Shown: positions 7,440 through 62,212 of the stretch, piece by piece
Layout of the letters: each line of letters starts with the position of its first letter
Numbering within the stretch: the stretch's first letter is position 1
Assembly: GCA_963169855.1 (NCBI GenBank)
Contig: CAUJCN010000001.1
Coordinates: forward strand, 175,645 to 239,644
Direction of reading: 5' to 3'
DNA length: 64,000 bases
DNA from: Patescibacteria group bacterium
GTDB taxonomy: Bacteria; Patescibacteriota; Dojkabacteria; J137
Translations under genes and position numbers: made by a program
The notes under the pieces: generated by a model
What the model saw: only the letters and a program-made list of their open reading frames with translations
What the model was told of the DNA's origin: nothing
The model's database searches: none

Positions 7440-7851
7440 GATCTTTTATTCTTAAACCTTCAATCTTTTTAGATATTGATCAATCTCTTAGTAAATTATA
7501 TAATCTAGATATTCACAACGATAAAGGTTCCCAGCCTTTGGAGTGAGAATGGAACTACTATTGTCATATTGAGCCTGTCGAAATATAGACAATTGGATAA
7601 CATTCCTCAGAACTCAACTGAGATAACACAAATGAGAACTAGTAAATTGCTAGTTACAGAGTCTTTAATAGCAATATTAAGGAAAAGCAAGATGGTACCA
7701 CGATCGTGTACACCGAAGCGTTTGCGTAGGTTGTAAGCCTCGTTCTTGCTAAATACTATTACCCGTAGTGTTTAGCAAGAATGGGGCTTTTTTTGTAGCT
7801 AAAGGCGTCAAATCGCCTCTGGCTAATATATTTAAATTTTATTTTGTAATT
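7440..7851 (+). promoter_or_regulatory. proS 5' leader with candidate attenuator (T-box-like motif plus long terminator hairpin)
   Basis: about 410 nt noncoding; GAUGGUACCACG at 7691-7702 resembles T-box GGUGGUACCGCG; 19-bp hairpin 7735-7789 followed by U-tract, 57 nt before proS ATG. Confidence 0.35.
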
Positions 7852-9324
7852 ATGGACGACAAGAAAATTACTCCAAGAGCCGAGGACTATTCTCAATGGT
7901 ATCTTGATATTGTAGAGAAAGCTGAACTTGCAGAAAACTCAGCGGTTAGAGGATGCATGGTAATTAAACCTTACGGTTACGCTCTTTGGGAAAACTTTCA
8001 AAAAGTATTAGATGGAAAGTTCAAAGAACTTGGTCACGTAAATGCTTACTTTCCTTTGTTAATTCCAAAATCATTTTTAACAAAAGAAGCAAAACATGTT
8101 GAAGGATTTGCTCAAGAAACAGCAGTTGTAACTCATTACAGATTAAAAACTGATCCAGTAACAAGAGAAGTTATTGTTGATCCAGAAGCAAAATTAGAAG
8201 AAGAATTAGTTATCAGACCAACATCAGAAACCATTATTTACGATACTTACTCAAACTGGATTAAATCTTACAGAGATTTACCATTACTGATTAATCAATG
8301 GGCAAATGTTTTAAGATGGGAAATGCGAACAAGACCATTCTTAAGAACAGCAGAATTTCTATGGCAAGAAGGTCACACAGTTCATGCGACTTTAGAAGAA
8401 GCTGAAGAAGAAGCAATTCAAATGCTGAAAGTTTATCAGTGGTTTGCAGAAGAATATCTTGCGATTCCAGTTATCCCTGGTCAAAAATCAGAATCTGAAA
8501 AATTTGCAGGAGCATTACGAACTTATACAATCGAAGCAATGATGCAGGATGGCAAAGCTCTTCAAGCGGGAACTTCACATAATTTAGGTGATAACTTCGC
8601 AAAAGCTTTTGATATAAAATTCTTGGACAAAGATGAAACTGAGAAATATGCTTGGCAAACAAGTTGGGGATTAAGCACAAGAATGATCGGAGCATTAATT
8701 ATGACTCACAGCGATGACAAAGGATTAGTTGTTCCACCAAAAATTGCACCAACTCAAATTGTTATAGTTCCAATTTGGAAAGATGATTCTCAAAAAGAGT
8801 TAGTATTAGCAGAGGCTAAGAAATTGAAAGAACAATTTGCAGGATTCAGCGTAAAATTAGACGATAGAGACTACAACACTCCTGGAGAGAAATTCTACCA
8901 GTGGGAAAAGAAAGGAGTGCCTTTGAGAGTAGAAATCGGACCAAAAGATATCGAGAAAAATCAGGTCGTATTTGTAAGAAGAGACAGCGGAGAAAAATCT
9001 TTTATCCCAATGAGTGAAGTTTCATCTCAAGCTAAATCCACACTAGATAATATCCAATCTTCACTTTACGAAAAAGCAAAGGCGTTTAGAGATTCTAGAG
9101 TTTACGAAGTAAATTCATACGAAGAATTGAAAGATGTTGTAGAAAATAAAAATGGATTTGCTTTAGCATACTGGGATGATTCTGCAGAAAACGAAGCGAA
9201 GATTAAAGAAGAAACTAAAGCCACAATCAGATGTATTCCTTTTGAGCAGAATGGAGTTTCTGGAAAATCAATTATTTCTGGAAATGAAACTAATCATAGA
9301 GTAATTTTTGCAAAAGCTTATTAA
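7852..9324 (+). CDS. proS: prolyl-tRNA synthetase, archaeal/eukaryotic-type class II
   Basis: [26 protein letters not shown]...[15 protein letters not shown]-terminus, motif 2 [15 protein letters not shown]-terminal zinc-binding-type domain; ORF track start 7768 is an upstream in-frame ATG inside the terminator hairpin. Confidence 0.9.
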
Positions 9325-9330
9325 TTGAGC

Positions 9331-10161
9331 ATGAGAATTGTCCAAACCAAAACATCTGACGGAATAAACTTTAATGGATTAATTTCAGAAGCAGAAAATC
9401 CAAAAGGAATTATTATTCATATTCACGGCATGGCTGGAAGTATAGTTATCAATTCTTTTTATCAAAGCATGCACGATGAGTATACAAAAAATGGTTGGTC
9501 ATTTCTTGTAGGAGAATTAAGAGGCACTGGAACAGTTACTCAATTCACATCTGCCAGTGGTGTAAGAACTATTGGTAATGCCTACGAAATATTTGAAGAA
9601 TGTGTTTTTGACATCGATTCCTGGATAAATTTTGCAAGAGATTTAGGTTATTCGAACATTTGTCTACAAGGACACAGTTTAGGTACATCTAAAATTGCTT
9701 ATTATTTGGATCAGACACACTCTAAAGATATTGAAAAAGTAATACTGTTAAGTCCTTCAGATATGCACGGATTAGTTCATGATTCTACTAGCATTAAGGA
9801 GCACGAAATATTACTTGCTGAAGCAGAAAGGCTAATTCCATCATCGCCTAGAGAATTATTAAGCCAGCCATTATGGGAAGATGTATTGTTATCAGCACAA
9901 AGTTACTTGACTTTTTTTGGGCAGAATTCAAAAGATAATATTTTTCATTATAAGCAAAATAATAATTGGGAAGTTTTAAATTCAATAAAAATCCCTGTTC
10001 TTGCAATAACAGGAACACAAGATGATGGAATCGTTCCAGTAATTTCTGCAAACGAAGCAATGGAGATTCTGAAATCTCAACTCATGAACTCATCCAAGGT
10101 TAAAACTATAGTGTTCGAAGGTGCCGAACACGATTTCAATAATTTTTTGAGAAAGAAATAG
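9331..10161 (+). CDS. alpha/beta-hydrolase fold protein
   Basis: GHSLGT nucleophile elbow (GxSxG), HGMAGS; ORF track TTG start at 9325. Confidence 0.55.
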   Translation: MRIVQTKTSDGINFNGLISEAENPKGIIIHIHGMAGSIVINSFYQSMHDEYTKNGWSFLVGELRGTGTVTQFTSASGVRTIGNAYEIFEECVFDIDSWINFARDLGYSNICLQGHSLGTSKIAYYLDQTHSKDIEKVILLSPSDMHGLVHDSTSIKEHEILLAEAERLIPSSPRELLSQPLWEDVLLSAQSYLTFFGQNSKDNIFHYKQNNNWEVLNSIKIPVLAITGTQDDGIVPVISANEAMEILKSQLMNSSKVKTIVFEGAEHDFNNFLRKK

Positions 10162-10190
10162 TTAAAAATGTTTTAGAATTCATTAATTAA

Positions 10191-10679
10191 ATGATCTGGA
10201 CTAAACCTCACATTTCAAAAATTTACGAAGCGGCTGGTGCGATTGGAGACAATCGCATCGAAGTTTCGGATTCAGAAAATTCTGCAAAGATGTTTTCTTC
10301 TTCTAAAGGCAAGTTCTACACAGTTACCTGGAACGATGATTTATCCCAAATGATGAGTAACGATAACAGTGCTTACTGGACTGGACAAGTCAGCTATCCA
10401 ATGATTTCAATTTTAATGCTGAAAGGTAAAATTCAATTTGATCCAAAAATCTGCGATTTACTAAAAGGATTTGCATGGAAAGATATAAATCAGACCCCGT
10501 ATAAGTTACGGGGTAAAAATGATTTCGACAAAACAGTGGAATTTGTTCTTAACGAACTTGAGAATAGAGGAGAAGATGTCGAATTTGTAAAAAGTGAAAC
10601 TCAGAATATTGCTGACCAACTTGATAGTTTGCAAATCGAGCATTTAGGAAACAGATTAAAACCACCAAAGGGATACTAA
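10191..10679 (+). CDS. hypothetical protein
   Basis: 162-aa ORF. Confidence 0.4.
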   Translation: MIWTKPHISKIYEAAGAIGDNRIEVSDSENSAKMFSSSKGKFYTVTWNDDLSQMMSNDNSAYWTGQVSYPMISILMLKGKIQFDPKICDLLKGFAWKDINQTPYKLRGKNDFDKTVEFVLNELENRGEDVEFVKSETQNIADQLDSLQIEHLGNRLKPPKGY

Positions 10680-10854
10680 ATCATATTCTCTTTAAACCTG
10701 GATATAAATTAGGTAAAGTTTATAGTAACAAAGCCAGAAAATTTTAAGTTCGAAAAAGTTGGAACATTTTCTCTCTTCGAGCTTGAATATTGAGCTTTTG
10801 TTTTATCAAGTATTTTTCGATCTTTGAATTTAGAATTTCGAGCTTTTATTTTAT

Positions 10855-11241
10855 ATGGATCTTATTATTTTCGACGATGTTTGCGTACTTTGTAATGGAT
10901 TTGCAAAATTTGTGCTGAATCGTGACAAAAAAGACCGTTACCTTTTTACATCTCAAACTTCCGAAGCTTTCAAAAAGTTGAATATAGATCAAAAGTTAAT
11001 AGGACAAACAGTTATCCTGGTGAAGAATTTTGAAACTAAACCAAAAGTTTTCGTTAAGTCCAGAGCGGCGATAGAAATCTTAACTTCACTTTCTAAAATC
11101 TACTTTCCACTGAAAGTTTTAATTTTAGTTCCCTGGTTTATTCGTGATTTCTTTTACGATTTAATCAGTAGAAATCGATACCGAATTTGGGGAAAGACAT
11201 CTGTTTGCTCAATAGCTAAAAACAGCAAGATGTTAAAATAA
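10855..11241 (+). CDS. DCC-family thiol-disulfide oxidoreductase (DUF393)
   Basis: N-terminal IIFDDVCVLCNGFAKFV (DxxCxxC) signature. Confidence 0.55.
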   Translation: MDLIIFDDVCVLCNGFAKFVLNRDKKDRYLFTSQTSEAFKKLNIDQKLIGQTVILVKNFETKPKVFVKSRAAIEILTSLSKIYFPLKVLILVPWFIRDFFYDLISRNRYRIWGKTSVCSIAKNSKMLK

Positions 11242-21104: not shown

Positions 21105-21199
21105 AAAAATGCGTTAACTAAAGGAATATTACCATGATCTAAAACATCTGAATACCCTACAGATAAACGCTATAGTGAGCGCAAGAATAAATGATGCAT

Positions 21200-21263
21200 G
21201 TTGAAGCACTCGAAATGTTCAACAAAAGAATGAATGATGTCATGGTGAGGCACTCGAACCATC
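21200..21263. repeat. two tandem hairpins of the ATGGT-TCGANNNNCCTC-ACCAT family (left flank of GIY-YIG gene)
   Basis: GTTGAA-GCACTCGAAAT-GTTCAAC and GATGTCATGGTGAGGCACTCGAACCATC. Confidence 0.7.
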
Positions 21264-21569
21264 ATCATTCTTTCTCTCTCCTAGACTATAACGTTGTGCT
21301 AACTTACTAATAAGATCGTAATCGTTTTTAATTAAAGCTTCTTTCTTAGCTCTAGACCACCTCTTAATTTGTTTTTCAAAAGCAATCGCATAATTTATAT
21401 CATTGAATTCAAAAGTGGCACAAACAATAATCGGTCTTCTTTTGTAAGTGTAACAACGATTATTCAATCCATTAGAATGCTCAGAAATTCTTCTATCTAA
21501 ATTATTAGTTACTCCTATATAAAAAGTATCGTCAATACACCTAAGAATATACACATAAAAAGACTTCAT
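21240..21569 (-). CDS. GIY-YIG nuclease family protein (COG2827/YhbQ-like)
   Basis: FYVYILRCIDDTFYIGVTNNLDRRISEH signature. Confidence 0.65.
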   Translation of the reverse strand: MKSFYVYILRCIDDTFYIGVTNNLDRRISEHSNGLNNRCYTYKRRPIIVCATFEFNDINYAIAFEKQIKRWSRAKKEALIKNDYDLISKLAQRYSLGERKNDDGSSASP

Positions 21570-21632
21570 ATTTGAAGAATACTACTAACCTCTGAGAAGT
21601 TCTTTGTCATGAAATACAAATTCCTTCTTTGT

Positions 21633-21657
21633 ACGGTTCGAGAGCCTCACCGTGACA
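21633..21657. repeat. hairpin repeat of same family, inverted relative to 21236-21263 (right flank of GIY-YIG gene)
   Basis: ACGGTTCGAGAGCCTCACCGTGACA; reverse complement matches left copy at 21/23 positions. Confidence 0.7.
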
Positions 21658-21705
21658 AAGTTATAAGCACTCAAATCGGAACTAACTTTGATATAATGCA
21701 TATGT

Positions 21706-23178
21706 ATGACAATTCTAGATACCAAGAACGAAAATTTCCAAACTACAGTAAGGACAGCCCCTAAAAAGCCGGGTTGTTATATGTATAAGGATTCGTCCGG
21801 AACTATTATCTACATTGGCAAAGCAAAGAATCTTTTCAATAGAGTTCGAAGCTATTTTATGAACTACCCCAAGTTAGAAATTAGAATTCAGCAAATGATA
21901 GATCTGGCAGTTGAAGTTGAGTATCTGGTAGTCGATTCTGATGTTGAATCGATAATTCTAGAAACGAATCTAATCAAAAAATACCACCCTAAATACAACA
22001 TTTTGATGAGGGATGATAAAAACTACAGCTGGATTCTTTTTGAGAAACAGATAAAGGGCAAGAATGATTTCCCAAGAATTAGAATTGTAAGAGATAACTC
22101 AGAACCAAATGCAGATTACTTTGGACCTTTTCCATCCAGACTTCCATTAAAAAACATTTTAAGAAGAGCAAGAAAAGTTTTTCCTTATGCGAGTTGTAAC
22201 AGAACAATTGTTCAAGTTTCAAACGATCCACTGCAAGTTGAAACAAACAATAGCATCCCTTGCCTATACTACCATTTAGGACTATGTAGCGCTCCATGTG
22301 CAAGTAAAGAAAATAGAGAAGATTACATGAAAAATTTCAACAACATAAAAAGAATTTTTCAAGGTCAAAAGGGCGAAATCATTAACGAACTTGAAGACAA
22401 AATGAAAATACTTTCTGAATCCAGAGAATACGAAAAAGCCGCTGAAGTTAGAGACAGAATCGATGATATTCAATACGTGACAAAGAGAATCAAAATAGAT
22501 AATAATGTTGATGATATAGTTGTAGCAGGGCTTGTAGAAGCTGCCAGAGAAAATGGAATTAACGAGCTAATTGAAAAATTGAAATTTCCTGCTAGCGTTT
22601 TAAGTAATCACAAAGGTTTTAGAATCGAGTGTTACGACATTAGTAACTTCCAGGGATCGAACCCGGTTGGAGCTATGACAGTAATGATTGATGGTGAATT
22701 GAGAACTGATTTGTACAGAAGATTTAAGATTCAAATCAAAGATACTCCAGATGATTTTGCCATGCATCAAGAAATGCTGGAAAGAAGGCTAAAGTACTTG
22801 ATAGACGATCAGAACAAACTAAAAGACGAATCTTTGAAGCAAATGCCAGATCTAATAATTGTAGATGGAGGAAAAGGTCAATTGAGTTCAACATTCTTAA
22901 TTCTTAAACAATTTGGTTTAGAAAAACGAATTCCAATCGTTGGGTTAGCAAAGAGAGAAGAAGAGATATTCAAACTGAATAATCAATTTGATGTTTCAAA
23001 TAATGAATCTAAAGGTCAGGAAAAAGCAAAAAAATTGTTAGCAAAGTTCGGTAGAGTAATGCTTCCAAGAAGATCCGAGTCTTTATTTATAGTTCAGAGA
23101 ATTAGAGACGAAGCTCATAGATTTGGAATTACATTCCACAGAAAACTGAGAAGTAAAGCAATGAAACTTAATGATTGA
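21706..23178 (+). CDS. uvrC: excinuclease ABC subunit C, short form lacking C-terminal (HhH)2 domain
   Basis: N-terminal GIY-YIG (GCYMYKDSSGTIIYIGKAKNLFNRVRSYF), Cys motif CLYYHLGLCSAPC, UvrBC domain EYEKAAEVRDRIDDIQ, ends shortly after EAHRFGITFHR. Confidence 0.8.
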   Translation: MTILDTKNENFQTTVRTAPKKPGCYMYKDSSGTIIYIGKAKNLFNRVRSYFMNYPKLEIRIQQMIDLAVEVEYLVVDSDVESIILETNLIKKYHPKYNILMRDDKNYSWILFEKQIKGKNDFPRIRIVRDNSEPNADYFGPFPSRLPLKNILRRARKVFPYASCNRTIVQVSNDPLQVETNNSIPCLYYHLGLCSAPCASKENREDYMKNFNNIKRIFQGQKGEIINELEDKMKILSESREYEKAAEVRDRIDDIQYVTKRIKIDNNVDDIVVAGLVEAARENGINELIEKLKFPASVLSNHKGFRIECYDISNFQGSNPVGAMTVMIDGELRTDLYRRFKIQIKDTPDDFAMHQEMLERRLKYLIDDQNKLKDESLKQMPDLIIVDGGKGQLSSTFLILKQFGLEKRIPIVGLAKREEEIFKLNNQFDVSNNESKGQEKAKKLLAKFGRVMLPRRSESLFIVQRIRDEAHRFGITFHRKLRSKAMKLND

Positions 23179-39359: not shown

Positions 39360-41222
39360 TTACTCCCCCTTCCTCAACTCATACATCCTCACAATCTCCT
39401 CAACACTATTAGGGTAATCCTTATCTCGATTCCAAATCTTTAATCTTGGAAATCGAATAGACAACCCTTTTGTTGAATCATCGTTTTTTACTTTTGCAGG
39501 AATTCCTTTCGCTGCTGTGTGGTTTGGGCTTCTTGTAATTTCGTCTGCAACAATTTCCATAACTAATTTTGGTTTTACCCAAACGTCTGGAACTAAAGTT
39601 TTATCTACAACATAGTTTTCTGGTTTCTCGGCCACGAAATGTTTCTGTAAGTCTGCATTAATTGTTGGAGCTTGTTCATCTGTAAATCCGCTTCCAACTT
39701 TTCCAATAGAGTAGTAGGTATCGTTACTTGCATCGTAGACCCCTGCCAACATCGCACCAAATCCGTATTTATTTCTCGCACCTTGTCCGTAGAAATATCC
39801 CAACACAACAACGTCGATTGTATCTACCAAGTGACTTTGAGTATTAGCCTTCAGCTTAATCCATTTGAAATTTCTTGTTCCAGGTTCGTATGTAGATTTT
39901 TCTTCTTTAGTAATTATTCCTTCTAAACCTGCATTCACTTTGCTGAAGAAATATTCTTCCAACTCAGCTTCTGATTGCATTTGTTTTGTCTCCAGCATCT
40001 TTAATGAGCCCTGAGCTTTGAGCTTTGAGCTTTGAGCTTCCTCCTTAGAGTTCTGAGAAAGCAAAGACTCCAGTATTCTCAGCCGTTCCTCTATCGGTTC
40101 CTGAGTTATATCTTTTCCATTCAAATACAAAACATCAAAACACATTGCTCGGACAGGAATATCTTTTGCATAAGTTTCCACATCGTACTTTCTTCTTCGC
40201 TGCATTGTTTCCTGATAAGTTTTGTAATTACCATCTTCTTCTACACCAATAATTTCTGAATCCAAAACAACAGAATCAACACCAAGATTTTTTACAGATT
40301 CCAAAAGCTCTGGGAAGTTGTCTGTAAGTCTTTCCATATTTCGACTGTAGACTTCGGCCTCACCAGTTTTTTTATCAAAATGAATTTGACCACGTAGTCC
40401 ATCCAACTTTGGCTGAACAAAACACTTCGGCATTCTTTCCCAAACAGAAGCTGCAGAATCTTCTCGCTCCACAAGCTTAGATGCGATTGGAACTCCAGGA
40501 ACAATTTTAATTTTTGATAGATTTTCAATTGCTGAAGATTTATCAGTGAGAATAATTTCCGCAAGTTGACCAGCATCTGCTCTTGCTCCAAAAGCCTGAT
40601 CAATTAATTTTCTTGTAGATTTATCTCCAGACACAACAAAAGAAAGAGAGTCGAGTAGAGTTTTGTCGCTAGCACCAAGCCTTAAGTCTCCTAAAATAAT
40701 TCTAGTTGTGAATTTAATTTCCTGAGGTTCAAGAATTCTGAAAAGGTTTTCGTACAATTTTAATTTTGCATCTTGAGATCCTTTCCCAGAAGTTTGAGTT
40801 ATTTTAATTAAGAATGAGTGTAGTTCTTCGATAGTTTCGACTTTGATGTCTGTCACATCGAGCTTGTCGAGATGTGTTTCACCATTTTGGTTATCATGCT
40901 TCGACAGGCTCAGCATGACATCTCCTTTGAATGTTTCTCGAATTTCTGCTGCAACATTCCCCATATCCCCAAGTTTACCCAACATCGACTTAACATCTTC
41001 AGAAGTAAATTCCTGAAGTTTTCTGATAATCATTTTGTCTGAGAAGTTGAATTCAATCGGCTCGAATTTTGGTGCAACTCTACCTTGAAGAAAGTAGATA
41101 AAAAATCGAGCTTCTTTTGGTGAAAGCTGGGTTAGAAAATCCGCGGTTAAAGTGGTTAGATCGTTTCTAGAACTTGTGGTTTCGAGTTTGTTTAAAAAAG
41201 CTGAGAGTTCTGTTAGTTTCAT
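39360..41222 (-). CDS. ATP-dependent DNA ligase
   Basis: adenylation motif I KLDGLRGQIH, EGIITK, WIKLK motifs. Confidence 0.8.
   Translation of the reverse strand: MKLTELSAFLNKLETTSSRNDLTTLTADFLTQLSPKEARFFIYFLQGRVAPKFEPIEFNFSDKMIIRKLQEFTSEDVKSMLGKLGDMGNVAAEIRETFKGDVMLSLSKHDNQNGETHLDKLDVTDIKVETIEELHSFLIKITQTSGKGSQDAKLKLYENLFRILEPQEIKFTTRIILGDLRLGASDKTLLDSLSFVVSGDKSTRKLIDQAFGARADAGQLAEIILTDKSSAIENLSKIKIVPGVPIASKLVEREDSAASVWERMPKCFVQPKLDGLRGQIHFDKKTGEAEVYSRNMERLTDNFPELLESVKNLGVDSVVLDSEIIGVEEDGNYKTYQETMQRRRKYDVETYAKDIPVRAMCFDVLYLNGKDITQEPIEERLRILESLLSQNSKEEAQSSKLKAQGSLKMLETKQMQSEAELEEYFFSKVNAGLEGIITKEEKSTYEPGTRNFKWIKLKANTQSHLVDTIDVVVLGYFYGQGARNKYGFGAMLAGVYDASNDTYYSIGKVGSGFTDEQAPTINADLQKHFVAEKPENYVVDKTLVPDVWVKPKLVMEIVADEITRSPNHTAAKGIPAKVKNDDSTKGLSIRFPRLKIWNRDKDYPNSVEEIVRMYELRKGE
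40006..40040. repeat. heptanucleotide tandem repeat (GAGCTTT)n inside ligase CDS
   Basis: gagccct gagcttt gagcttt gagcttt gagcttc; encodes EAQSSKLKAQGSL on coding strand. Confidence 0.7.
40895..40920. repeat. hairpin-family copy embedded in ligase CDS
   Basis: CATGCTTCGACAGGCTCAGCATGACA; the 12-mer TCGACAGGCTCA is also at 47943 and, reverse-complemented, at 7569. Confidence 0.6.
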
Positions 41223-42176: not shown

Positions 42177-43349
42177 TTAATTAACTCTCTTAATCGCATC
42201 CATAAAGAAGACAGCATTTGCCAAAGAACCATCGGTTAGTTCTGCAGTTCCATAATAAACATAAATTGGATAAGTGAATCCAACCCATTCCTGAGGTTCG
42301 TAGAAAGCAAGTTCTGTTCTTCGTGCATCGATTTGGAATCTTCTAACTTCTCGGAGCGGAGCAGTAGCAAAATAATCATCTGTAGAAGTTGAAAGAGCAA
42401 CTAAAGCTCCTTCGCCACTTTGAACTCTAGAGAAACCTTCTTCAGGAGTGATAATTTGGTAAACGCCAGTTAAAGTATATTCAAAATTGATGAAATTTAT
42501 TCGGAAAACATCCTTTGCTGGATTAGATAGATTGTAAGAAAATAACGTTTTAAAACTTCCATTTGTAGAATCAGAAGTATAAACCTTTCCTTTTAAATCT
42601 AACGGAGCAGTTTGTCCAGGTCGAACTGCTGGTCTTTCGTTTTGAGGTTTCAAAGTTGCCTGATCCAAAACTCTATAAACAGATCCTGCAGCAAACTCAG
42701 CATCATCAATAGTAGATGTAACAATGTATTCTCCTGCGGCATTCAAGTCTAAAAATTTCAAATCAAATTGTGGACTAGTAAATCCTGTAGAACCAAAATT
42801 CAAAGTTCTTACTAACTGAGCTAATCTAGTTTGGTAACTCGAAGCATCACCAGTTAAATCAGCAACTTTAGCATCAGAGTTTGCAGATAAATCAGTTTCT
42901 AAACTCCAAACCTGAGTTACGCTGTTGTATCTTAGAGTCTTTGTTCTATCGGCAGATTGCCATCTGTAATCATTAGGTCCAAAAATTTGAGGTTCTTCTT
43001 CAAACCCTAAATTTGCTGCTGTGTCTTCAAAAGTTGCTAAGAATTGAAAATTTTCTCTAGGTTTTAAAACTTGATAAACGTACGAAACATCAGGGAATGT
43101 GTTCGAAAATGTTGATGTAATACTATACTGAGGATTTGAGCTTCCAATATTAATAGATGGAATATCGAATTCAGGAAGATCATTAAATATTCGGTTTGAC
43201 TTCATGTAGAATCGACTTGCCTCGTCTGTAGTTCCGCCAATACCTCTTTGAATAGTTCCGAAATTGTCGAAAAATATTATTACGACAGCAAAAACAAGGA
43301 AACCAATTAAAAATTTTCGCGCGTTGTTAGAACTCGAATATAAACTCAT
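42177..43349 (-). CDS. secreted/membrane-anchored hypothetical protein
   Basis: 390 aa, N-terminal signal anchor FLIGFLVFAVVIIFF. Confidence 0.45.
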   Translation of the reverse strand: MSLYSSSNNARKFLIGFLVFAVVIIFFDNFGTIQRGIGGTTDEASRFYMKSNRIFNDLPEFDIPSINIGSSNPQYSITSTFSNTFPDVSYVYQVLKPRENFQFLATFEDTAANLGFEEEPQIFGPNDYRWQSADRTKTLRYNSVTQVWSLETDLSANSDAKVADLTGDASSYQTRLAQLVRTLNFGSTGFTSPQFDLKFLDLNAAGEYIVTSTIDDAEFAAGSVYRVLDQATLKPQNERPAVRPGQTAPLDLKGKVYTSDSTNGSFKTLFSYNLSNPAKDVFRINFINFEYTLTGVYQIITPEEGFSRVQSGEGALVALSTSTDDYFATAPLREVRRFQIDARRTELAFYEPQEWVGFTYPIYVYYGTAELTDGSLANAVFFMDAIKRVN

Positions 43350-43393: not shown

Positions 43394-43495
43394 GAAAGAA
43401 CCCCTCTTGTGCTTCGCACTTTCTCCCTGTCATCCTGAGGCTCTCGAAGGGTTGAAAGGGGAGATGCCCGATTTATCGGGAAGAGGGGTTCTTTC
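43394..43495. repeat. GC-rich structured element with perfect 15-bp terminal inverted repeats
   Basis: GAAAGAACCCCTCTT ... AAGAGGGGTTCTTTC enclosing internal hairpin CCCGATTTATCGGG. Confidence 0.6.
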
Positions 43496-43585: not shown

Positions 43586-45082
43586 ATGCCTGACTATTAC
43601 GAACAACCAGCTTATCTAAAAGAACTGTTAGAAGAGCCAAAAACAGAAACTACAGTTGTAAATACGAACGTTCCGCCTTCAGATGATGACGACACGCCAA
43701 AAAGATCTTTACCTAAGATTCCTCAAAGATACATTATTATTGTAATCGCATTACTTATTATTCTTGTTTTACTAGTAGTACTTTTAGGAACAAGAAGAAC
43801 TGGTGGAACAACTCCAACAACAACAGGTACTGATCCTAATAAAACAGTGATCTTGCAATGGTGGGGAGTTTACTTATCAGAAGATGCCGTAGGACCTTTG
43901 CTAGATGAATACAATTCCATAAATCCAAACGTAACTATTCAGTATGCAGATCAATGGCCAATCGGCTCTTATGATGACGCAGTTGCAAATTATAGAAGTG
44001 AACTAAATAGAAGAATCGCCTCTACAGATGTAGTTGAAACACCAGACATATTCATGGTGAATAACACTTGGGTCAAAGATTATATTAATTACGCTCAAGC
44101 TGCGACAAGTAATGTAACCGATTACGCAACATTCGCAAATACATATTATCCAGTCGTAGCTTCAGATTTTGCTAGTTCTACAACTCAGAAGGTTTTCGGA
44201 GTACCCTTATGGCTTGATACATACGCGATTTTATACAACAAAGATCAATTGAACGCAGCTTCAGTTTCAACAATTCCAACTGACTGGACTACATTTAGAA
44301 ATTTAGCCAGAACACTAACTCAGAAAACAGGATCAACTTTAACAAGAGGAGGATTTGCAGCAGGAATAGCCTCGAATGTAACTTACGCAACAGCGATGTT
44401 CAATCTATTGATGATTCAGAATGGAGTAGAGATAACAGACGCAAATGGTTTACCAATTTTCGGATCACAAACAGAATCTAAAAGTGCGTTAGATTTCTAC
44501 AAAGATTTTGCTACAAGTGCGAACTATACTTGGAGATCTTCAGCAAAAAATGATGCAGTAGCATTCTTGGAAGGAGACTTATCCATGATTTTTGCACCAA
44601 GCTACAGATACAGAGATTTAAAAACTACAAACGAAGATTTATCTTTAGGGTTAGATATTGGAGTAGCTCAGGTTCCACAGTTAGTTGGACAAAGCCAGCC
44701 ACTAATCAACTGGGCGGACTATTGGGGAAACATGGTTTCTTCGAAAAGACCGAATGCTGCTTACGCGTGGGATTTCTTAAACTGGATTACTCAACCAGAA
44801 CAACTTAGAAAACTAAACGATAATATAAAAACTGATACAGCTCAATTCGGAATTCTATACCCAAGAAAAGATATGGCTGCGGATAATCTTGCAGATACTG
44901 ATTTAAAGATTTTTGCAGAATCGTTACCTTTTGCTCAAAGTTGGCAGATGGTTAAGGGAATAGAAGTAAATGCGGCTTTTGAAGAATTGTTGGATTTGAA
45001 TTCTCCAAGTGCGAATAATATTACTCAGACTCAGAATGATATTACTCCGCTGGTAAATTCTGCTGGAACGCTAACGCAGTAA
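43586..45082 (+). CDS. extracellular solute-binding protein (ABC-transporter SBP family 1-like), membrane-anchored
   Basis: N-terminal TM anchor; VILQWWG...PNVTIQYADQWP...TPDIFMVNNTWVKDY pattern typical of sugar-binding SBPs. Confidence 0.5.
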   Translation: MPDYYEQPAYLKELLEEPKTETTVVNTNVPPSDDDDTPKRSLPKIPQRYIIIVIALLIILVLLVVLLGTRRTGGTTPTTTGTDPNKTVILQWWGVYLSEDAVGPLLDEYNSINPNVTIQYADQWPIGSYDDAVANYRSELNRRIASTDVVETPDIFMVNNTWVKDYINYAQAATSNVTDYATFANTYYPVVASDFASSTTQKVFGVPLWLDTYAILYNKDQLNAASVSTIPTDWTTFRNLARTLTQKTGSTLTRGGFAAGIASNVTYATAMFNLLMIQNGVEITDANGLPIFGSQTESKSALDFYKDFATSANYTWRSSAKNDAVAFLEGDLSMIFAPSYRYRDLKTTNEDLSLGLDIGVAQVPQLVGQSQPLINWADYWGNMVSSKRPNAAYAWDFLNWITQPEQLRKLNDNIKTDTAQFGILYPRKDMAADNLADTDLKIFAESLPFAQSWQMVKGIEVNAAFEELLDLNSPSANNITQTQNDITPLVNSAGTLTQ

Positions 45083-47804: not shown

Positions 47805-47850
47805 ACTATTAATATATCATATTTTGAGATACCGATTCCGATACAACCAT

Positions 47851-47911
47851 AGATCCCGTACCACCGACAGATCCCGCACCACCGACAGATCCCGCACTTG
47901 ATGCGGGATCT
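47851..47911. repeat. 18-bp tandem repeat ending in perfect hairpin
   Basis: AGATCCCGTACCACCGAC / AGATCCCGCACCACCGAC / AGATCCCGCA-cttga-TGCGGGATCT. Confidence 0.65.
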
Positions 47912-47936
47912 AATTAAAGTTTTACATATATCGCAA

Positions 47937-47962
47937 CATGGTTCGACAGGCTCACCATGACA
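47937..47962. repeat. hairpin-family copy upstream of alaS
   Basis: CATGGTTCGACAGGCTCACCATGACA. Confidence 0.65.
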
Positions 47963-47993
47963 CGATATAATCCTGTATATTAATTTACACATC

Positions 47994-49922
47994 ATGAAAA
48001 CGTCAGAGCAAATCAGAGAAGAATTTTTGAAATTTTGGGAAGAATCACCTAGAAACGCCAAGCTTGTTCCGAACATGTCATTAGTGCCAAATAACGATCC
48101 TACTTTACTTTTCGTAAATTCAGGAATGTTCCCACTTGTTCCTTATTTAGGAGGACAACCACACCCTTTGGGAACGAGACTTTATAATTTGCAAAGATGC
48201 GTAAGAACAATCGATATTGATGATGTAGGGGACAATCGACATTTAACTTGTTTCGAAATGATGGGCAATTGGTCACTTGGGGATTTTACAAAAGCTGAAC
48301 AAATTCCTTGGATTTTGGAACTTCATGTAGAAAGATACGGATTCGATCCATCCAGACTATACATCTCGGTTTGGGGAGGAGACGATTCTATTCCAAGAGA
48401 CGACGAAGCAATCGAACTTTGGAAAAAGGCATTCAGGAAATACGGCATCGAAGCTGAATACTCAGAAGACAGATCAAACTTACCAAAAGATTTAGAAGAA
48501 GGAAAAACTTGGAAGCCAAGAATCTTTCCATTCGGAAAGAAAGAAAATTGGTGGCAAAGAGGACCTGATGTTGTTGGAGAACTTGGAGGACCTTGTTCAG
48601 AAATTTTCTTTGATACAGGAAAAATTGTTCACGAGCAGGAAAAGTACGACATTAACGATGACTCATGGAGATTCATCGAAATCGGAAACAACGTTTTCAT
48701 GGAGTACAGATTTGATGAAAGCGGAAAGTGGGTTCAGATGGAAAAGAAGAACATCGACTTTGGGGGAGGATTTGAAAGAGTAGTTAAGTGTATTCAAGAT
48801 CAAGAAGACTTCTTTGGAACAGACATTTTCATGCCTTACATTCAAAAAGTTGAAGAGCTTTCTGGAATGAATTACAAAGACGGAAATGGAAAAGATCACG
48901 ATAAATCAAACTCATTTAGAGTTATTGCGGACCACATTAGAACAAGCGTTTTAATGATTGGAGACGGAGTTGTTCCTTCAAACAAAGACCAGGGATATAT
49001 TCTAAGAAGACTTATAAGAAGAATGATCCGACACGCTATGAAAGTTGGAATTCAAGATAATTTTGCAGAAGATTTGGCAAAAGTTGTAATCGAAAAAATG
49101 ACTCACGGTTACCCTCATTTACAAGAACAGAAAGCTCGAATTATTTCTGAATTAGTTAGAGAAGAAGAAAAGTTCTCAAAGACAATAAGCAATGGTTTGA
49201 GAGAATTAAACAAACTTGTAGACGAAGTAAATAATTCTCAGAGAACTTCCCTGCCTGCCGGCAGGCATGGGATTTCGGGAGGAGACGCTTTCAACTTGTA
49301 CGAAACTTACGGTTTTCCAGTAGAACTTACATTAGAACTTTTGAAAGAAATGGGAATTTCTGAATTTTCTATGGATGAATTCAACGCTGAACAGGAAAAA
49401 CACCAATCCGATTCTAGAGCTGGAGCAGAGCAGAAGTTTAAAGGAGGTTTAGCTGATCAGTCAGAAGAAACTACAAAACTTCATACAGCTCATCACTTGT
49501 TACTTGCAGCTTTACAGAAACTTGTTAATCCTACTATCAAGCAGAGGGGAAGTAATATTACTGCTGAAAGATTAAGAATTGACTTCAATTTGGATAGAAA
49601 ACTAACTGAAGAAGAAATCAAGAATGTAGAAGAATGGGTTAACGCAAGAATTGCAGAAAAGTTACCTGTTGTAAGATTAGAAATGAAAAAAGAAGAAGCT
49701 GAAAATATTGGTGCACAAATGGAATTCGGAGCTAAATATCCAGATGTCGTATCAATTTATTACATTGGGAATTCAGTGGAAGAATCTGTTTCTAAAGAAT
49801 TCTGCGGAGGTCCACACGTTTCCAATACTTCTGAACTTGGTGAAGGCGGAAAAACTTTCAAGATTGTAAAAGAAGAAAGTAGTGGAAGCGGAATCAGAAG
49901 AATAAAAGCTTCTTTAGTTTAA
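47994..49922 (+). CDS. alaS: alanyl-tRNA synthetase, short form lacking C-Ala domain
   Basis: N-terminal catalytic-domain motifs (LVPNNDPTLLFVNSGM, RHLTCFEMMGNWSLGDF), editing HxxxH (HTAHHLLLAAL) and CGGPHV; 642 aa. Confidence 0.85.
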   Translation: MKTSEQIREEFLKFWEESPRNAKLVPNMSLVPNNDPTLLFVNSGMFPLVPYLGGQPHPLGTRLYNLQRCVRTIDIDDVGDNRHLTCFEMMGNWSLGDFTKAEQIPWILELHVERYGFDPSRLYISVWGGDDSIPRDDEAIELWKKAFRKYGIEAEYSEDRSNLPKDLEEGKTWKPRIFPFGKKENWWQRGPDVVGELGGPCSEIFFDTGKIVHEQEKYDINDDSWRFIEIGNNVFMEYRFDESGKWVQMEKKNIDFGGGFERVVKCIQDQEDFFGTDIFMPYIQKVEELSGMNYKDGNGKDHDKSNSFRVIADHIRTSVLMIGDGVVPSNKDQGYILRRLIRRMIRHAMKVGIQDNFAEDLAKVVIEKMTHGYPHLQEQKARIISELVREEEKFSKTISNGLRELNKLVDEVNNSQRTSLPAGRHGISGGDAFNLYETYGFPVELTLELLKEMGISEFSMDEFNAEQEKHQSDSRAGAEQKFKGGLADQSEETTKLHTAHHLLLAALQKLVNPTIKQRGSNITAERLRIDFNLDRKLTEEEIKNVEEWVNARIAEKLPVVRLEMKKEEAENIGAQMEFGAKYPDVVSIYYIGNSVEESVSKEFCGGPHVSNTSELGEGGKTFKIVKEESSGSGIRRIKASLV

Positions 49923-50539
49923 ACTTCGAATGCAGAAGGACTTGAACCCTGGTTTGAGTCCTTTTTCTTTCCATTTTTTGTATTCTTAATTGTTCCTAAA
50001 TACTTCCTTAATTTATCGTATTCGCAAAGATCAGCCATTTCGTAGTCAGGAAAGACATGTGGTGGTACCTGAAAGTCTTTACTAGCAGAGGCCATTACCA
50101 AGTATCTAGCAATTGATTCTGCAGCGTCTCTAAAAAACATATCATTAACAACCTGCTCTCTATTGCCATATTGTCCAAGGATATTAACTATTTCAAGCCT
50201 TTTCTTTGCAATTCTCTTTTCTACCATGCTTCTTAATTCTGCGAAGAACTCTTCTTGTTCGTAACCATCCTTTAAAGAAAAATGATATCCGGCTAGTGGT
50301 TGTTCATATCTATCAAGTTGAACACTTGCCATCCAAGTTTCGTAATCGCTGTCTGGTTCTAATATTTCAGTTTCACTTGAATTATTAACTTTTCCAGACC
50401 CTCTTCTCCTTTCCTCTACAACAAAAATCATACCAACGAAAACATATTGAAATTCTGGTAAAAGTGTAGAAAACAAAGGAAATTCGCTTGTTTTATCTAT
50501 TATTTCAAATTGAATAAAGTCGTCGCCCATTTTTAGCAA
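49919..50539 (-). CDS. hypothetical protein
   Basis: 206-aa ORF. Confidence 0.4.
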   Translation of the reverse strand: MLKMGDDFIQFEIIDKTSEFPLFSTLLPEFQYVFVGMIFVVEERRRGSGKVNNSSETEILEPDSDYETWMASVQLDRYEQPLAGYHFSLKDGYEQEEFFAELRSMVEKRIAKKRLEIVNILGQYGNREQVVNDMFFRDAAESIARYLVMASASKDFQVPPHVFPDYEMADLCEYDKLRKYLGTIKNTKNGKKKDSNQGSSPSAFEV

Positions 50540-50574
50540 TATTTATGTTGTTGGATTTTATCACATCGAAGAAT

Positions 50575-51810
50575 TTAGGAAAGTAGAAGCTGTGCAGATT
50601 CGTTAGAATTTTTGATCTCGTATTCCGAAGGTGTTGCTGTTGTGTAAACGACCTGGTTAGTTCTTTTTGTAAACTCGTCGAACATTAGAGGTCTATTATC
50701 TAGCGCTGATCTCATTCGAAATCCGTAATCAACAAGGTTTTCTTTTCTTGATCTATCTCCTGAATACATTCCTCCAATCTGAGGGACTGTAATATGGGAT
50801 TCGTCGATAATTGTTAGATAGTCTTCTGGAAAATAATCGAGTAAAGTAGACGGAGCTGAACCAACTGCTCGCCCATCTATGTATCTAGAATAATTCTCAA
50901 TTCCCTTGCAGAATCCAGTTTCTTCGATCATTTCCATGTCGTAGTTTACTCTTTGTTTTAATCTAGTTGCTTCTACAAGTTTACCTCTATCAGTAAAGTC
51001 TTTTACCTCTTTTTCTAAATCTTCTCGAATTCGCACAATTGCTCTTTTTAGTTTTTCTTCTGGAGTTACGTTATGCTTTGCTGGAAAGATTGTAATCTCG
51101 TCGACTCTTCCAATAACTTCTCCACTGATTGGATTCATAATTCTAATTGAATCGATGTCATCTCCAAAGAATTCAACTCTAACAGCTCTGTCTTCGGAAA
51201 CTGTAAGATTAATATCTAATGAGTCACCTCTAACTCTGTAAGTTCCTGTTCCAAAATCATTGTTAGTTCTTTCGTACTGCATATCTCTTAAACGAGAAAG
51301 TAGTTTGTCTCGTGTTAAAGCTTTTCCTGTTTCAATTTTCACGCTCATACCCTCGTAATCATCTGGATTTCCAAGACCATATATGCATGAAACAGTTGAT
51401 ACAATAATAGTATCCTTTCGTGATAAAAGCATTTGAGTTGCAGAGTTTCTGTATCTTTCGATTACCTCGTTAATATCTGAATCTTTCTCAATATATAAAT
51501 CTCTAGAAGGAACGTATGCTTCTGGTTGGTAATAGTCGTAGTAACTTACAAAGTATTCCACTGCATTTTCTGGAAAAAAGTCTATAAATTCTGAGTACAA
51601 CTGTGCCGCCAAAGTCTTATTATGGGATAAGATCAATGTTGGTTTATTTACATTCTGAATCAGGTTCGCCATAGTGAAAGTCTTACCTGTTCCCGTAGCT
51701 CCAATCAAAGTCTGATGTTTTAATCCAGCTTTTACACCTTCTGAAAGAATATCAATTGCCTGTGGTTGATCGCCAGATGGTTTGTAGTTTGAGTGAAGTT
51801 TAAATGCCAT
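50575..51810 (-). CDS. uvrB: excinuclease ABC subunit B, N-terminal fragment (domains 1a/2/1b only); truncated gene or pseudogene
   Basis: GATGTGKTF Walker A, NKTLAAQLY, VEYFVSYYDYYQPEAYVP; stops after ...TTATPSEYEIKNS, lacking helicase domain 3 (motifs IV-VI) and UvrC-binding domain. Confidence 0.75.
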   Translation of the reverse strand: MAFKLHSNYKPSGDQPQAIDILSEGVKAGLKHQTLIGATGTGKTFTMANLIQNVNKPTLILSHNKTLAAQLYSEFIDFFPENAVEYFVSYYDYYQPEAYVPSRDLYIEKDSDINEVIERYRNSATQMLLSRKDTIIVSTVSCIYGLGNPDDYEGMSVKIETGKALTRDKLLSRLRDMQYERTNNDFGTGTYRVRGDSLDINLTVSEDRAVRVEFFGDDIDSIRIMNPISGEVIGRVDEITIFPAKHNVTPEEKLKRAIVRIREDLEKEVKDFTDRGKLVEATRLKQRVNYDMEMIEETGFCKGIENYSRYIDGRAVGSAPSTLLDYFPEDYLTIIDESHITVPQIGGMYSGDRSRKENLVDYGFRMRSALDNRPLMFDEFTKRTNQVVYTTATPSEYEIKNSNESAQLLLS

Positions 51811-53986: not shown

Positions 53987-53987
53987 A

Positions 53988-60648: not shown

Positions 60649-61130
60649 ACAGTCCAAGAAAAGCCATAATGATTGCGGTAGTAATAATCGCAACAGGCTT
60701 CTTGGCCTTTATAAGTTTCAATCGAACTTCCCAAAACGGTTTTACTCCAATTAGCCAAGCTATTTCTAAAATTCCAGTGAACATTAACGGTATAGAAATT
60801 GAAGCCGAAGTAGCTAGTACCGATGCAGAAAGAGCGACAGGCCTGATGAATAGAGAATTCTTACCCAGATATTCTGGTATGCTTTTCGTTTATGGCAGTG
60901 AAGCTCAAAGAACATTTTGGATGAAAAACACCTTGATTCCTTTGGACATAATATTCCTAAATTCGAATAAAGAAGTAGTCTCAATTTCATCCAATACTGT
61001 ACCCAACCAAACTGATAAACTTTATTACTCAAAGTTCCCCGCACAATTTATTTTAGAATTGAATGCAGGAATGGCCGAAGAGCTAGAAATCAATACAGGT
61101 AATGTTTTAGAGTTCGCTAACACTTTCTGA
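60645..61130 (+). CDS. DUF192 family protein
   Basis: ERATGLMNR...GMLFVYG...FWMKNTLIPLDIIFL signature; ATGA overlap with mutL stop. Confidence 0.55.
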   Translation: MNSPRKAIMIAVVIIATGFLAFISFNRTSQNGFTPISQAISKIPVNINGIEIEAEVASTDAERATGLMNREFLPRYSGMLFVYGSEAQRTFWMKNTLIPLDIIFLNSNKEVVSISSNTVPNQTDKLYYSKFPAQFILELNAGMAEELEINTGNVLEFANTF

Positions 61131-61236
61131 AATTTTCTTTCTAAAAGTGTTGACAAAACTTAATCTTGGATTTAGAATTATATTACTAAAGTTATACAAG
61201 TGGCTTTAGGAAGGTAAAAATAGTTAAAAGTGCAAT

Positions 61237-61270
61237 GAAAATTCCCCGTAAGGGGAATTTTCATTTGTGT
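61237..61270 (+). terminator. rho-independent terminator
   Basis: GAAAATTCCCC-gtaa-GGGGAATTTTC perfect 11-bp stem then TTTCATTTGTG. Confidence 0.6.
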
Positions 61271-61308
61271 CCGATCCAGTGTATAATAAACAAGTTTAAC
61301 ACTATACA

Positions 61309-61887
61309 ATGAGTTACTACGTCCCAACAGTTATTAAAAAGTCTCCAAGAGGAGAAAGAGTATACGATATTTACTCAATGCTTTTAGAATCTCGAATAAT
61401 CTTTGTAGGTTCAGGCATCAACGATGAAGTTGCAAACTCAGTTGTTGCACAATTATTGTTTTTAGCACAAGAAGATTCAGAAAAAGACATAGTTATGTAT
61501 GTGAATAGTCCAGGAGGATCTGTTTACGCAGGATTAGCAATTATCGACACAATGAATCATATTAAACCTGATGTAGCTACAATAGCAGTTGGATCTGCAG
61601 CTTCTATGGGAACAATGATTCTGACAAATGGAGCAAAAGGAAAGAGATTCGCTTTGAAGAACTCTACAGTTCATATTCATCAACCATTAGGTGGTGCAGA
61701 AGGACAAGCGAGTGACATCGCTATTACAGCAAAAGAAATTTTGAGAATAAAAGACATGCTTAAAAACATGTTGGTAGAGCAGACTGGGCAATCAGCAGAA
61801 AAAATCGAGAGAGATATGGATAGAGATTTCTTCATGACTGCAGAAGAAGCTAAGAATTACGGAATCATCGATAAAGTTATTGAATAA
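61309..61887 (+). CDS. clpP: ATP-dependent Clp protease proteolytic subunit
   Basis: catalytic triad context GSAASMG, IHQPLGG, DRD. Confidence 0.9.
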
Positions 61888-62056
61888 AGGCATCCTAAAG
61901 GATGGAAGATTCAAGACCAAAGATAAGAAGATTAAAAAGAAAAAATTTACCAAGAAGATTCAAAATAAGATTAGGATTCTTCAATAGTTCTTTGTGCTTT
62001 GATCTTTTAATTTTTGATCTTGAAAAAATAATTTGAAAAATTATTATTTTCTAAGT

Positions 62057-62129
62057 GGGTAGCTAGCTCAACTGGTAGAGCATTTCTTTGACGTAGAAAA
62101 GGTTACAGGTTCGAGCCCTGTGTTACCCA
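62057..62129 (+). tRNA. tRNA-Val (GAC)
   Basis: acceptor GGGUAGC/GUUACCC, anticodon stem UUUCU/AGAAA, loop UUGACGU, T-loop UUCGAGC. Confidence 0.8.
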
Positions 62130-62179
62130 TTAAAGTAAAATATTAAGATCCAAGATTCGAAGATTCAAAAATAATAAAG

Positions 62180-62212
62180 TGTGATGGTGAGCGTTAGTCG
62201 AACCATTGACCT
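62180..62212. repeat. hairpin-family copy between tRNA-Val(GAC) and ThrRS-like gene
   Basis: reverse complement GGTCAATGGTTCGACTAACGCTCACCATCACAC. Confidence 0.6.

Follow-up and report, generated by a model that had tools for sequence, protein, structure and literature searches.

What is a short hairpin doing in front of aminoacyl-tRNA synthetase genes, inside a DNA ligase gene and on both sides of a small nuclease gene, all in one compact genome? We addressed this question in a 64-kb stretch of genome (the window, to which all copy counts of the hairpin refer) from a bacterium whose ligase and UvrC have their nearest named homologues in Candidatus Dojkabacteria, a lineage of the Patescibacteria or candidate phyla radiation (CPR). 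The original prediction had described a dispersed hairpin family, with copies in the leaders of proS, alaS and a threonyl-tRNA synthetase (ThrRS)-like gene and inside the ligase gene, under selection as either a DNA cruciform or an RNA hairpin. We consider it likely (probability of about 0.75) that the hairpins are instead the cognate DNA repeats of a GIY-YIG nuclease encoded at 21240-21569 on the minus strand, in a system resembling either the repetitive extragenic palindromes (REPs) with their REP-associated tyrosine transposases (RAYTs) or the Ssn/NTS system of Neisseria.

Copies were sought with a covariance model. The model, R1, was trained exclusively on hairpins from foreign loci (alignment A5) and on none from the window, and was used at E<0.01 for window copies, at E<=0.1 for relatives and at E<=10 for a degenerate copy. 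It recovered eight copies in the window, which are given here together with the nuclease gene (ssn-like gene) and the degenerate copy.

7559-7590, minus strand: solo copy in the proS upstream region, antisense to proS; TATATT-TCGACAGGCTC-AATATG-ACA; R1 36.4 bits, E=9.5e-8.
21196-21230, minus strand: degenerate second copy downstream of the ssn-like gene; loop TCGAGTGCTTC; no R1 match at E<=10.
21235-21266, minus strand: hairpin at the 3' end of the ssn-like gene; ATGGT-TCGAGTGCCTC-ACCAT-GACA; R1 23.1 bits, E=4.6e-4.
21240-21569, minus strand: ssn-like gene, encoding a single-domain GIY-YIG nuclease of 109 amino acids (aa); Pfam GIY-YIG E=5.8e-18, no other domain.
21629-21660, plus strand: hairpin upstream of the ssn-like gene, in the divergent region with uvrC; TACGGT-TCGAGAGCCTC-ACCGTG-ACA; R1 26.7 bits, E=4.7e-5.
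40848-40923, ligase doublet: two inverted hairpins with heads outward, 40848-40879 (minus strand) and 40892-40923 (plus strand); R1 35.5 and 38.2 bits.
43425-43456, minus strand: solo intergenic copy; ACCCT-TCGAGAGCCTC-AGGAT-GACA; R1 21.0 bits, E=0.0018.
47934-47965, plus strand: solo copy upstream of alaS, 29 nt before the alaS ATG, in sense orientation; CATGGT-TCGACAGGCTC-ACCATG-ACA; R1 35.2 bits, E=2.1e-7.
62177-62210, minus strand: solo copy with a 13-nt loop; ATGGT-TCGACTAACGCTC-ACCAT-CACA; R1 18.9 bits, E=0.0066.

Reading of the sequence at each position placed the six previously listed sites correctly. Two copies, the second one in the ligase gene (40848-40879) and the intergenic one (43425-43456), were absent from the earlier list, and its entry at 21200-21225 is only a degenerate remnant undetected by R1: its arms are direct instead of inverted repeats and the original stem is lost, an alternative stem TGTTGAA/TTCAACA being possible. 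The 12-mer TCGACAGGCTCA, said to occur three times in 64 kb and far above chance, indeed occurs exactly three times (7570-7581, minus; 40901-40912, plus; 47943-47954, plus) versus 0.00 expected from 100 dinucleotide shuffles. Besides, a 25-mer core with at most three mismatches gave three matches in the window versus none expected, and a scan for a stem, TCGA-N-CTC and a second stem gave seven clean hairpins plus some AT-rich noise, where shuffles give 1.7.

The conserved stretch spans only about 27 to 33 nt, and the flanks of the copies share nothing (alignment A1). Each unit consists of a variable arm of 5 to 6 nt, the loop TCGA(C/G)-N2-4-(G/C)CTC, the complementary arm and the tail (T)GACA; the arms in the window include CATGGT, TACGGT, CATGCT, CACATC, TATATT and ACCCT. 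Loop and tail had rightly been called conserved, and the loop is better written in this more general form, which ends mostly in GCTC and, for three of the copies (21242, 21632 and 43425), in CCTC. On the strand that starts with 5'-TGTCA, the unit reads as a head (TGTC-A), an outer stem of 5 to 6 bp and free sequence, the core GAG(C/G)-N2-4-(G/C)TCGA and the closing outer arm, and in the core three base pairs, G-A-(C/G), can form an inner stem that closes a small apical loop. The fold of the copy at 21629-21660 has -8.2 kcal/mol (z=-3.5), and that of the copy at 7559-7590, where the stem is extended by TTGTC/GACAA, has z=-3.4. No Rfam family matched the hairpins at gathering thresholds, and permissive scans of 21150-21720 and 7360-7900 were also empty over them.

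Two of the copies are built around the ssn-like gene. In the direction of the gene, the inverted copies at 21629-21660 and 21235-21266 form a bracket, TGTCA[hairpin]-gene-[hairpin]TGACA, with both heads outward, so that the TGTCA head of the 21235-21266 copy points away from the gene. The encoded protein has a core of about 95 aa, which holds every invariant residue of the protein alignment A2, followed by a hairpin-encoded tail; its last ~9 codons (DDGSSASP) and the TGA stop come from the downstream hairpin. The ligase doublet shares the head-out geometry, but no gene lies inside it; it is inserted in frame into the gene for the ATP-dependent DNA ligase (39360-41222, minus strand), where it encodes approximately VMLSLSKHDNQNGETHLDKLDVT. 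Among 2374 homologues of the ssn-like protein, most of them 95 to 110 aa long, the tails are likewise translated hairpins read in different frames (...S(T/A/R)SP*, ...STSSP*, ...GSAGSP* and ...RLRSP*, or internal TLRQAQGDK). GIY-YIG and other open reading frames (ORFs) extended through hairpins are flagged here as an annotation artefact. The PADLOC (defence) and PHROGs (phage) libraries gave no match for the nuclease, and NCBIfam gave none that was meaningful.

The link between gene and hairpin was examined in other genomes. A search of 185,579 species genomes with the protein-core alignment A2, from whose query the hairpin-encoded tail was cut because circularity was to be avoided, provided the best 80 loci (L001-L080), each with 3-kb flanks; most belong to Bacteroidota, and the others include Nitrospinaceae, Ignavibacteriaceae, Vulcanimicrobiota and Eremiobacterota. 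Using a pattern of loop plus GAC tail with no stem requirement, we found 215 matches in 61 of the 80 loci, with 0.2 expected. The matches concentrate within 250 nt of the gene, and their strand depends on the side: 48 minus and 17 plus upstream, 42 plus and 19 minus downstream. The same arrangement recurs in three loci found by looking up exact proteins (L100-L102) and in L081, a plasmid locus of Sphingomonas. Thus, we hold the association of the hairpin family with the GIY-YIG gene with high confidence, and it is systematic in position and orientation across phyla; hairpins with the TCGA core were seen beside such genes in Bacteroidota, Patescibacteria (Dojkabacteria), Nitrospinaceae, Ignavibacteriaceae, Vulcanimicrobiota and sphingomonads. 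In one locus, from Bacteroidetes bacterium 47-18 (L004, 1820-3450), about 20 hairpins within ~1.6 kb form a regular array, like a bacterial interspersed mosaic element (BIME), that flanks the GIY-YIG gene on both sides and comprises four stem types (TATGCT, GGGCT, TACCCT and CACATT).

An all-versus-all comparison divided the proteins into three clusters. Cluster A comprises the window protein and those of Elizabethkingia, Nitrospinaceae and Sphingomonas (L100-L102 also belong here), all with TCGA-core hairpins. Cluster B comprises proteins of Rhizobium, Sphingobium, Spirosoma and Planktothrix, which have a C-terminal NPxWxDL and canonical CGTCA/TGTCA-stem hairpins in the same bracket geometry, and cluster C the UPF0213 proteins (BH0048, EF2693 and that of Legionella). 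Bit scores were 39 to 74 between A and B and 55 to 68 between A and C, and only 0 to 38 between B and C, where one pair gave no alignment. The protein clade therefore tracks the hairpin class.

The original prediction that stems vary while pairing is kept was borne out by copies from other genomes. Among the 215 matches, all five stem pairs are formed in 134 and four of five in 62 (mean 4.47, versus 1.8 to 1.9 with the partner slid), and 34 different stems occur. In an alignment of 108 distinct copies, all from other genomes and chosen by loop and tail alone, 91.1% of the cells are paired, versus 14 to 36% with the partner slid, and there are 164 double-sided changes versus 56 in shuffles, none of 500 shuffles reaching 164. 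Four stem positions have three or four Watson-Crick pair types each. Thus, the stem is kept as structure while its letters change. Little varies in the loop core, where TCG and CTC are invariant and C11 and G14 conserved to at least 90%; within it, the pairs G9-C18 and A10-T17 do not change, and C11-G15 is swapped from C-G to G-C in a few cases. In Methylobacterium bullatum (L082, 1300-1960), a homologue of 47% identity is flanked by a longer repeat, TCGAG-[GCCCGC...GCGGGC]-ACCTC, followed by AGGATGAGG; the inner stem is here lengthened into a real helix, which supports a two-tier hairpin. Because of the constant pairs, the swaps and this extended version, the conserved core is probably a small inner stem set off by unpaired TC (GA on the head-first strand). 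The claim of selection on structure therefore stands, and of the two media proposed for it, DNA is the better supported and RNA is not favored.

Comparison with relatives revealed signs of recent gain. A relative with a 79%-identical UvrC keeps the gene order (ribonucleotide reductase, AI-2E transporter, uvrC, YggT-like), whereas its gap between transporter and uvrC is 125 nt with neither GIY-YIG gene nor hairpin, versus 601 nt with the hairpin-gene-hairpin cassette in the window. In protein and DNA alignments, the two nearest ligase orthologues (83% and 74% identical) lack the doublet segment of ~22 aa or ~66 nt, which falls in a linker of variable length within the N-terminal domain; the ligase ORF of the window is intact, and all three ligase domains were detected. 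We scanned about 76 kb of relatives' DNA, of which ~64 kb is distinct (L096 largely duplicates L095, and L104 largely duplicates L103), and found no copies at E<=0.1, versus eight in the 64 kb of the window. This shows that the units and the whole cassette are gained or lost as blocks. Since the syntenic site lacks the cassette and the ligase orthologues lack the doublet, the repeats have spread within the lineage; the system is apparently mobile, with signs of recent gain in a CPR bacterium, and provides a natural example of both cassette gain or loss and in-frame insertion into a DNA ligase gene.

How such a nuclease might act is suggested by SsnA of Neisseria meningitidis, a 94-aa single-domain GIY-YIG protein (CDD cd10448) (Chenal et al., Nat Commun 2025, PMC11893778). 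SsnA binds the NTS hairpin CGTCATTCCCGCGMAVGCGGGAATCYRG as single-stranded DNA (ssDNA) alone and on one strand only, not as double-stranded DNA (dsDNA) or RNA, and its cut lies upstream of the GTC head by a few nucleotides; the ssnA gene is flanked on both sides by NTS repeats, and the enzyme modulates natural transformation (PMC11893778). Its homologues across phyla carry Ssn-related motifs (SRM), with the consensus HGTCWYN(0-2)YYVSBRHN(0-5)WNVSBRGN(0-2)RNCYNB, and in NTS the 8-bp stem is conserved while the loop is dispensable and can even be removed (PMC11893778). The window system resembles this one in its single-domain nuclease of ~94 to 110 aa with no extra DNA-binding domain, in inverted hairpins on both gene sides with the (C/T)GTCA head outward, in further copies dispersed in the genome, in a nonpalindromic head that orients the repeat and in its occurrence in many phyla. 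Indeed, the published SRM expression matches at the plasmid-borne homologues of Rhizobium (L085) and Sphingobium (L087), where the copies bracket the gene head-out as in the window.

By analogy, the hairpin unit would fold when the DNA becomes single-stranded, as in replication, in repair or in incoming transforming DNA. The recognized strand would read 5'-TGTCA-stem-GAGCNNGTCGA-stem (predicted ssDNA target form, TGTCA-stem-GAGCCTGTCGA-stem), and the nuclease would recognize the head together with the conserved core, provided that the stem has the right shape, and would nick that single strand a few nucleotides 5' to the head, dsDNA and RNA being no substrates. We have moderate confidence in this ssDNA-nicking mechanism. 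As for its consequences and physiological role, the nuclease may drive repeat spread, a role thought to be played by RAYTs for REPINs (inverted REP doublets), and/or may use the hairpin sites to process ssDNA, for instance by restricting transformation as in Neisseria. The stem covariation would then arise from the need to keep a DNA hairpin and not an RNA one, and the nearness to proS, alaS and the ThrRS-like gene would mark places where a compact genome tolerates insertions. In this way, a partner enzyme and a likely mode of action can be assigned to repeats otherwise mistaken for synthetase regulators, and the principle of a hairpin plus an ssDNA nuclease is extended to CPR bacteria and to a second protein cluster.

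Several observations weigh against assigning the hairpins to this nuclease or to a system of this kind. No loop-plus-tail match was found in 19 of the 80 homologue loci, and a Dojkabacteria homologue of 60% identity (P0009; L098 and L099) has no TCGA-core hairpin at R1 E<=0.1 within ~0.4 to 0.7 kb upstream and 5 kb downstream, its repeats having been either lost or diverged beyond R1. The published SRM expression has no match in the window or in L001-L080. The division of labor within the hairpin is also reversed relative to NTS, a 5- to 6-bp stem being free here and an 11- to 13-nt core conserved, and therefore the recognition mode may differ. As judged from sequence comparison, the window protein does not fall clearly within the Ssn clade and appears about as near to UPF0213: it scores 44 to 59 bits (35 to 44% identity) against SRM-flanked proteins and 56 to 62 bits against UPF0213 proteins. 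The two heads of the bracket lie on opposite strands, which misfits a simple single-strand "peel and paste" model. DNA alignments at the ligase and cassette sites gave no exact insertion boundary and no target-site duplication, boundaries being indefinable because the flanks are too diverged. The 64-kb view limits counts of copy number and of co-occurrence, and binding and cutting of the hairpins by the window nuclease itself are predicted by analogy.

The hairpin family is REP-like and belongs to the kind of system known as Ssn/NTS, from which it is distinct in hairpin class, recognition logic and protein cluster. Only the head HGTCW(Y) of the SRM consensus is common to the window hairpin, and the window protein lies in a cluster separate from the SRM-flanked proteins, at the identities given above. 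The original prediction had named fragments of a known IS or REP family as the outcome that would speak against it; what we found is essentially of that sort, namely REP-like repeats tied to an Ssn-like nuclease (PMC11893778), and covariation was found nonetheless. The nearest solved structures to the window protein are the UPF0213 proteins BH0048 of B. halodurans (PDB 1zg2, E=2e-13) and EF2693 of E. faecalis (PDB 1ywl, E=2e-11). UPF0213 proteins, of the YazA/YhbQ type, resemble it in size and in a C-terminal K-x-[WL]-S-R-x-KKE-x-L motif; in contrast, the one UPF0213-like gene inspected, that of Legionella (L088), has no hairpin beside it either by eye or by R1.

A bolder version of this reading is that the TCGA-core hairpin and the cluster A GIY-YIG protein form a distinct, undescribed, pan-bacterial repeat/nuclease system, an active mobile analogue of REPINs, driven by a hydrolytic GIY-YIG nuclease and sister to Ssn/NTS, with an inverted recognition logic in which loop and head would be read by sequence and the stem by shape alone. 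We put this forward tentatively, as somewhat more doubtful than probable. Our literature search found nothing on the TCGA-core hairpin class, no paper with the core sequence and none extending Ssn to it, and neither Bacteroidota nor Patescibacteria is mentioned in the main text of PMC11893778, a study that defined SRM on 29 genomes. If this version holds, in-frame insertion into essential genes would be possible, and the odd peptides ...LSLSK..., ...FDKLR... and ...STSSP* in many predicted proteins would be accounted for. The free stem and conserved core are also relevant to the programmable ssDNA cutters proposed from Ssn enzymes, since a stem of free sequence would be designable.

Among the alternatives, the one that survives best, although we regard it as unlikely, takes the hairpins for terminal inverted repeats or sites of a dsDNA-cutting GIY-YIG homing endonuclease or transposase, the cassette being autonomous and the doublet a MITE (miniature inverted-repeat transposable element). 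GIY-YIG domains do drive homing in phage and organelle genomes. The inverted, head-out ends around the gene and in the gene-less doublet agree with such an element, as does the presence or absence of cassette and doublet as blocks. However, solo copies equal doublets in frequency, we saw no target-site duplications, and homing would be expected to leave split half-sites in direct order and not full inverted hairpins. Moreover, the protein is a bare catalytic domain of ~95 aa, without the separate DNA-binding domain that homing GIY-YIG enzymes need, and the homologous SsnA is inactive on dsDNA (PMC11893778).

It is slightly less probable still that the hairpins are ordinary REP-type palindromes with host roles (mRNA 3'-end stabilization, termination, or binding of nucleoid proteins or gyrase) and that the GIY-YIG gene is a passenger. 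Size, hairpin form, dispersal and, in some genomes, arrays such as that of L004 recall REPs and BIMEs. The system as a whole, nuclease included, also compares with the REP/REPIN-RAYT systems (Nunvar 2010; Bertels and Rainey 2011, PMC3116915; Ton-Hoang 2012): in both, short dispersed hairpins carry an unpaired tetranucleotide head, inverted doublets are the likely mobile unit, inheritance is lineage specific, and a single-copy gene flanked by repeats encodes an enzyme thought to act on them as ssDNA. The two differ in that the enzyme here is of the GIY-YIG type and not an HUH/Y1 (IS200/IS605-type) transposase, that nucleases of this type cut hydrolytically with no covalent intermediate, and that the head is TGTC, not GTAG. 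The passenger view also draws on the CGTC-tagged REPs (including Neisseria dRS3 and Rickettsia RPE-4 and RPE-6), for which Di Nocera et al. (2013, PMC3733652) reported no dedicated transposase. According to that paper, these REPs have a CGTC head, with TGTC variants, beside a hairpin, form common head-to-head dimers, sometimes heterodimers with different stems, and occur in frame inside genes, many of them for replication or repair. By their description there, families 1 to 4 differ from the window hairpins in having 8- to 9-bp stems that start with AT and loops of 4 to 5 nt (5 to 6 bp and 11 to 13 nt in the window), and the peptides that it gives for them are VIPAKAGI and SFPRKRES, compared with MLSLSKH and HLDKLDV here. 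The ligase doublet (~22 aa) also behaves, though in this respect only, like a Rickettsia palindromic element, a palindromic repeat placed in frame without destroying the gene. Against a passenger, the hairpins keep a systematic position and orientation at the gene across phyla, and hairpin class follows protein clade; most window copies lie upstream of genes and not at 3' ends, with no U-run; and the nuclease of the sister system has been shown to bind and cleave its repeats directly (PMC11893778).

The weakest alternative, and in our judgment a very improbable one, is that the hairpins are cis-regulatory elements in synthetase leaders recognized as RNA (through processing, attenuation or protein binding): three of the eight copies do lie upstream of synthetase genes, the proS copy is in a probably transcribed leader that also holds a terminator-like hairpin, and the stems covary, but the copies are antisense at proS and at the ThrRS-like gene and sense at alaS, so that the RNAs would differ because the conserved loop is asymmetric, the other copies lie in the ligase CDS (coding sequence), around the GIY-YIG gene and between unrelated divergent genes, the family adjoins GIY-YIG genes in 61 of 80 foreign loci, no Rfam family matched even at permissive thresholds, and the relatives lack the elements. 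The tie to synthetase leaders that the original prediction implied thus did not hold; the family is conserved beside GIY-YIG and not synthetase genes, and the link is incidental given the inconsistent orientation.

Two further functions were considered for the family and rejected. A terminator role is contradicted by the lack of a U-run 3' of any window copy. A promoter role, by a -35-like TCGACA or TGACA in the unit, finds a good match at the alaS copy only, and is also weakened by equal conservation of the motif in Bacteroidota, whose promoters differ.

At alaS, the hairpin loop TCGACA, a 17-nt spacer and TATAAT (47943-47971) form an 11/12 match of the sigma-70 type, 23 nt upstream of the ATG. 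Because the -35 element is the hairpin loop, this one copy may, judging from the match, have been co-opted as a promoter. About 30 nt from it lies another repeat (47850-47912), in which the arm AGATCCCG(C/T)A occurs three times with the spacer CCACCGAC between. A perfect hairpin, ATCCCGCA-CTTGA-TGCGGGAT, unique in the window, has the third AGATCCCG arm as its 5' arm; its loop and stem type resemble the canonical SRM at the Rhizobium ssn homologue (ATCCCAGGG-CTTGA-CCCTGGGAT), but a CGTC head is lacking.

The start of the proS ORF was probably miscalled at GTG 7768; a start at ATG 7853 gives what we take to be a typical ProRS (prolyl-tRNA synthetase) N terminus. The resulting leader of ~340 nt holds a promoter-like site at 7476-7504 (10/12) and, at 7739-7795, a terminator-like hairpin with a 20-bp stem and a U-run, which together suggest attenuation control of proS. 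A T-box-like GATGGTACCACGA is present at 7692-7704 of this leader, and no Rfam T-box match was obtained there even at E<=5.

The copy at 62177-62210 has tRNA-Val (62056-62130) on one side and the ThrRS-like gene on the other, and is antisense to each of them. The ThrRS-like ORF (62251-63765, 504 aa, TTG start) matches in Pfam only tRNA_SAD and the HGTP anticodon-binding domain, and not a class II core, TGS or editing domain; compared with a standard ThrRS, the protein is shorter and more atypical.

The intergenic copy at 43425-43456 lies between the divergent genes 42177-43349 (minus strand) and 43586-45082 (plus strand). It is enclosed in a GC-rich unit of ~100 nt (43394-43495), bounded by the 15-bp inverted repeat GAAAGAACCCCTCTT / AAGAGGGGTTCTTTC; this unit may be a composite element, since it holds a second small hairpin, CCCGATTTATCGGG.

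The window has a GC content of 35%, and its genes encode an archaeal-type ProRS, alanyl-tRNA synthetase (AlaRS), UvrC, ClpP, MutL, ribonucleotide reductase and the ATP-dependent DNA ligase; identical genes are present on metagenome contigs of up to 245 kb. At gathering thresholds, Rfam identified three tRNAs in the window and nothing else, and 11-mer counting across it gave no further GC-rich repeat families. The 11-mer CAGCTGAGCTA occurs four times (57469, 57606, 57823 and 57948), twice within tRNA-Phe and tRNA-Val and twice ~110 to 120 nt upstream of each of these genes. A partial tRNA-derived or promoter-associated duplicate may thus accompany each of the two tRNAs, and Rfam finds two tRNAs only in this region.

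Within the ligase CDS, a 7-nt tandem repeat, GAGCTTT, in 3 to 4 copies (40012-40035), falls in another region where the protein varies in length, the second of its kind. A type II restriction-modification pair lies about 1 kb away from this gene, with one ORF between them that has no Pfam match (38551-39357); in this pair, a C-5 cytosine DNA methylase gene (36642-37775, plus strand) converges with and overlaps an NgoBV-type restriction endonuclease gene (37752-38435, minus strand). Finally, the uvrB gene of the window (region 49919-51810, minus strand) is truncated or split: the ORF at 50575-51810 (411 aa) encodes the N-terminal half of UvrB alone (ResIII and UvrB_inter) and then stops, and the next ORF encodes 206 aa with no Pfam match.

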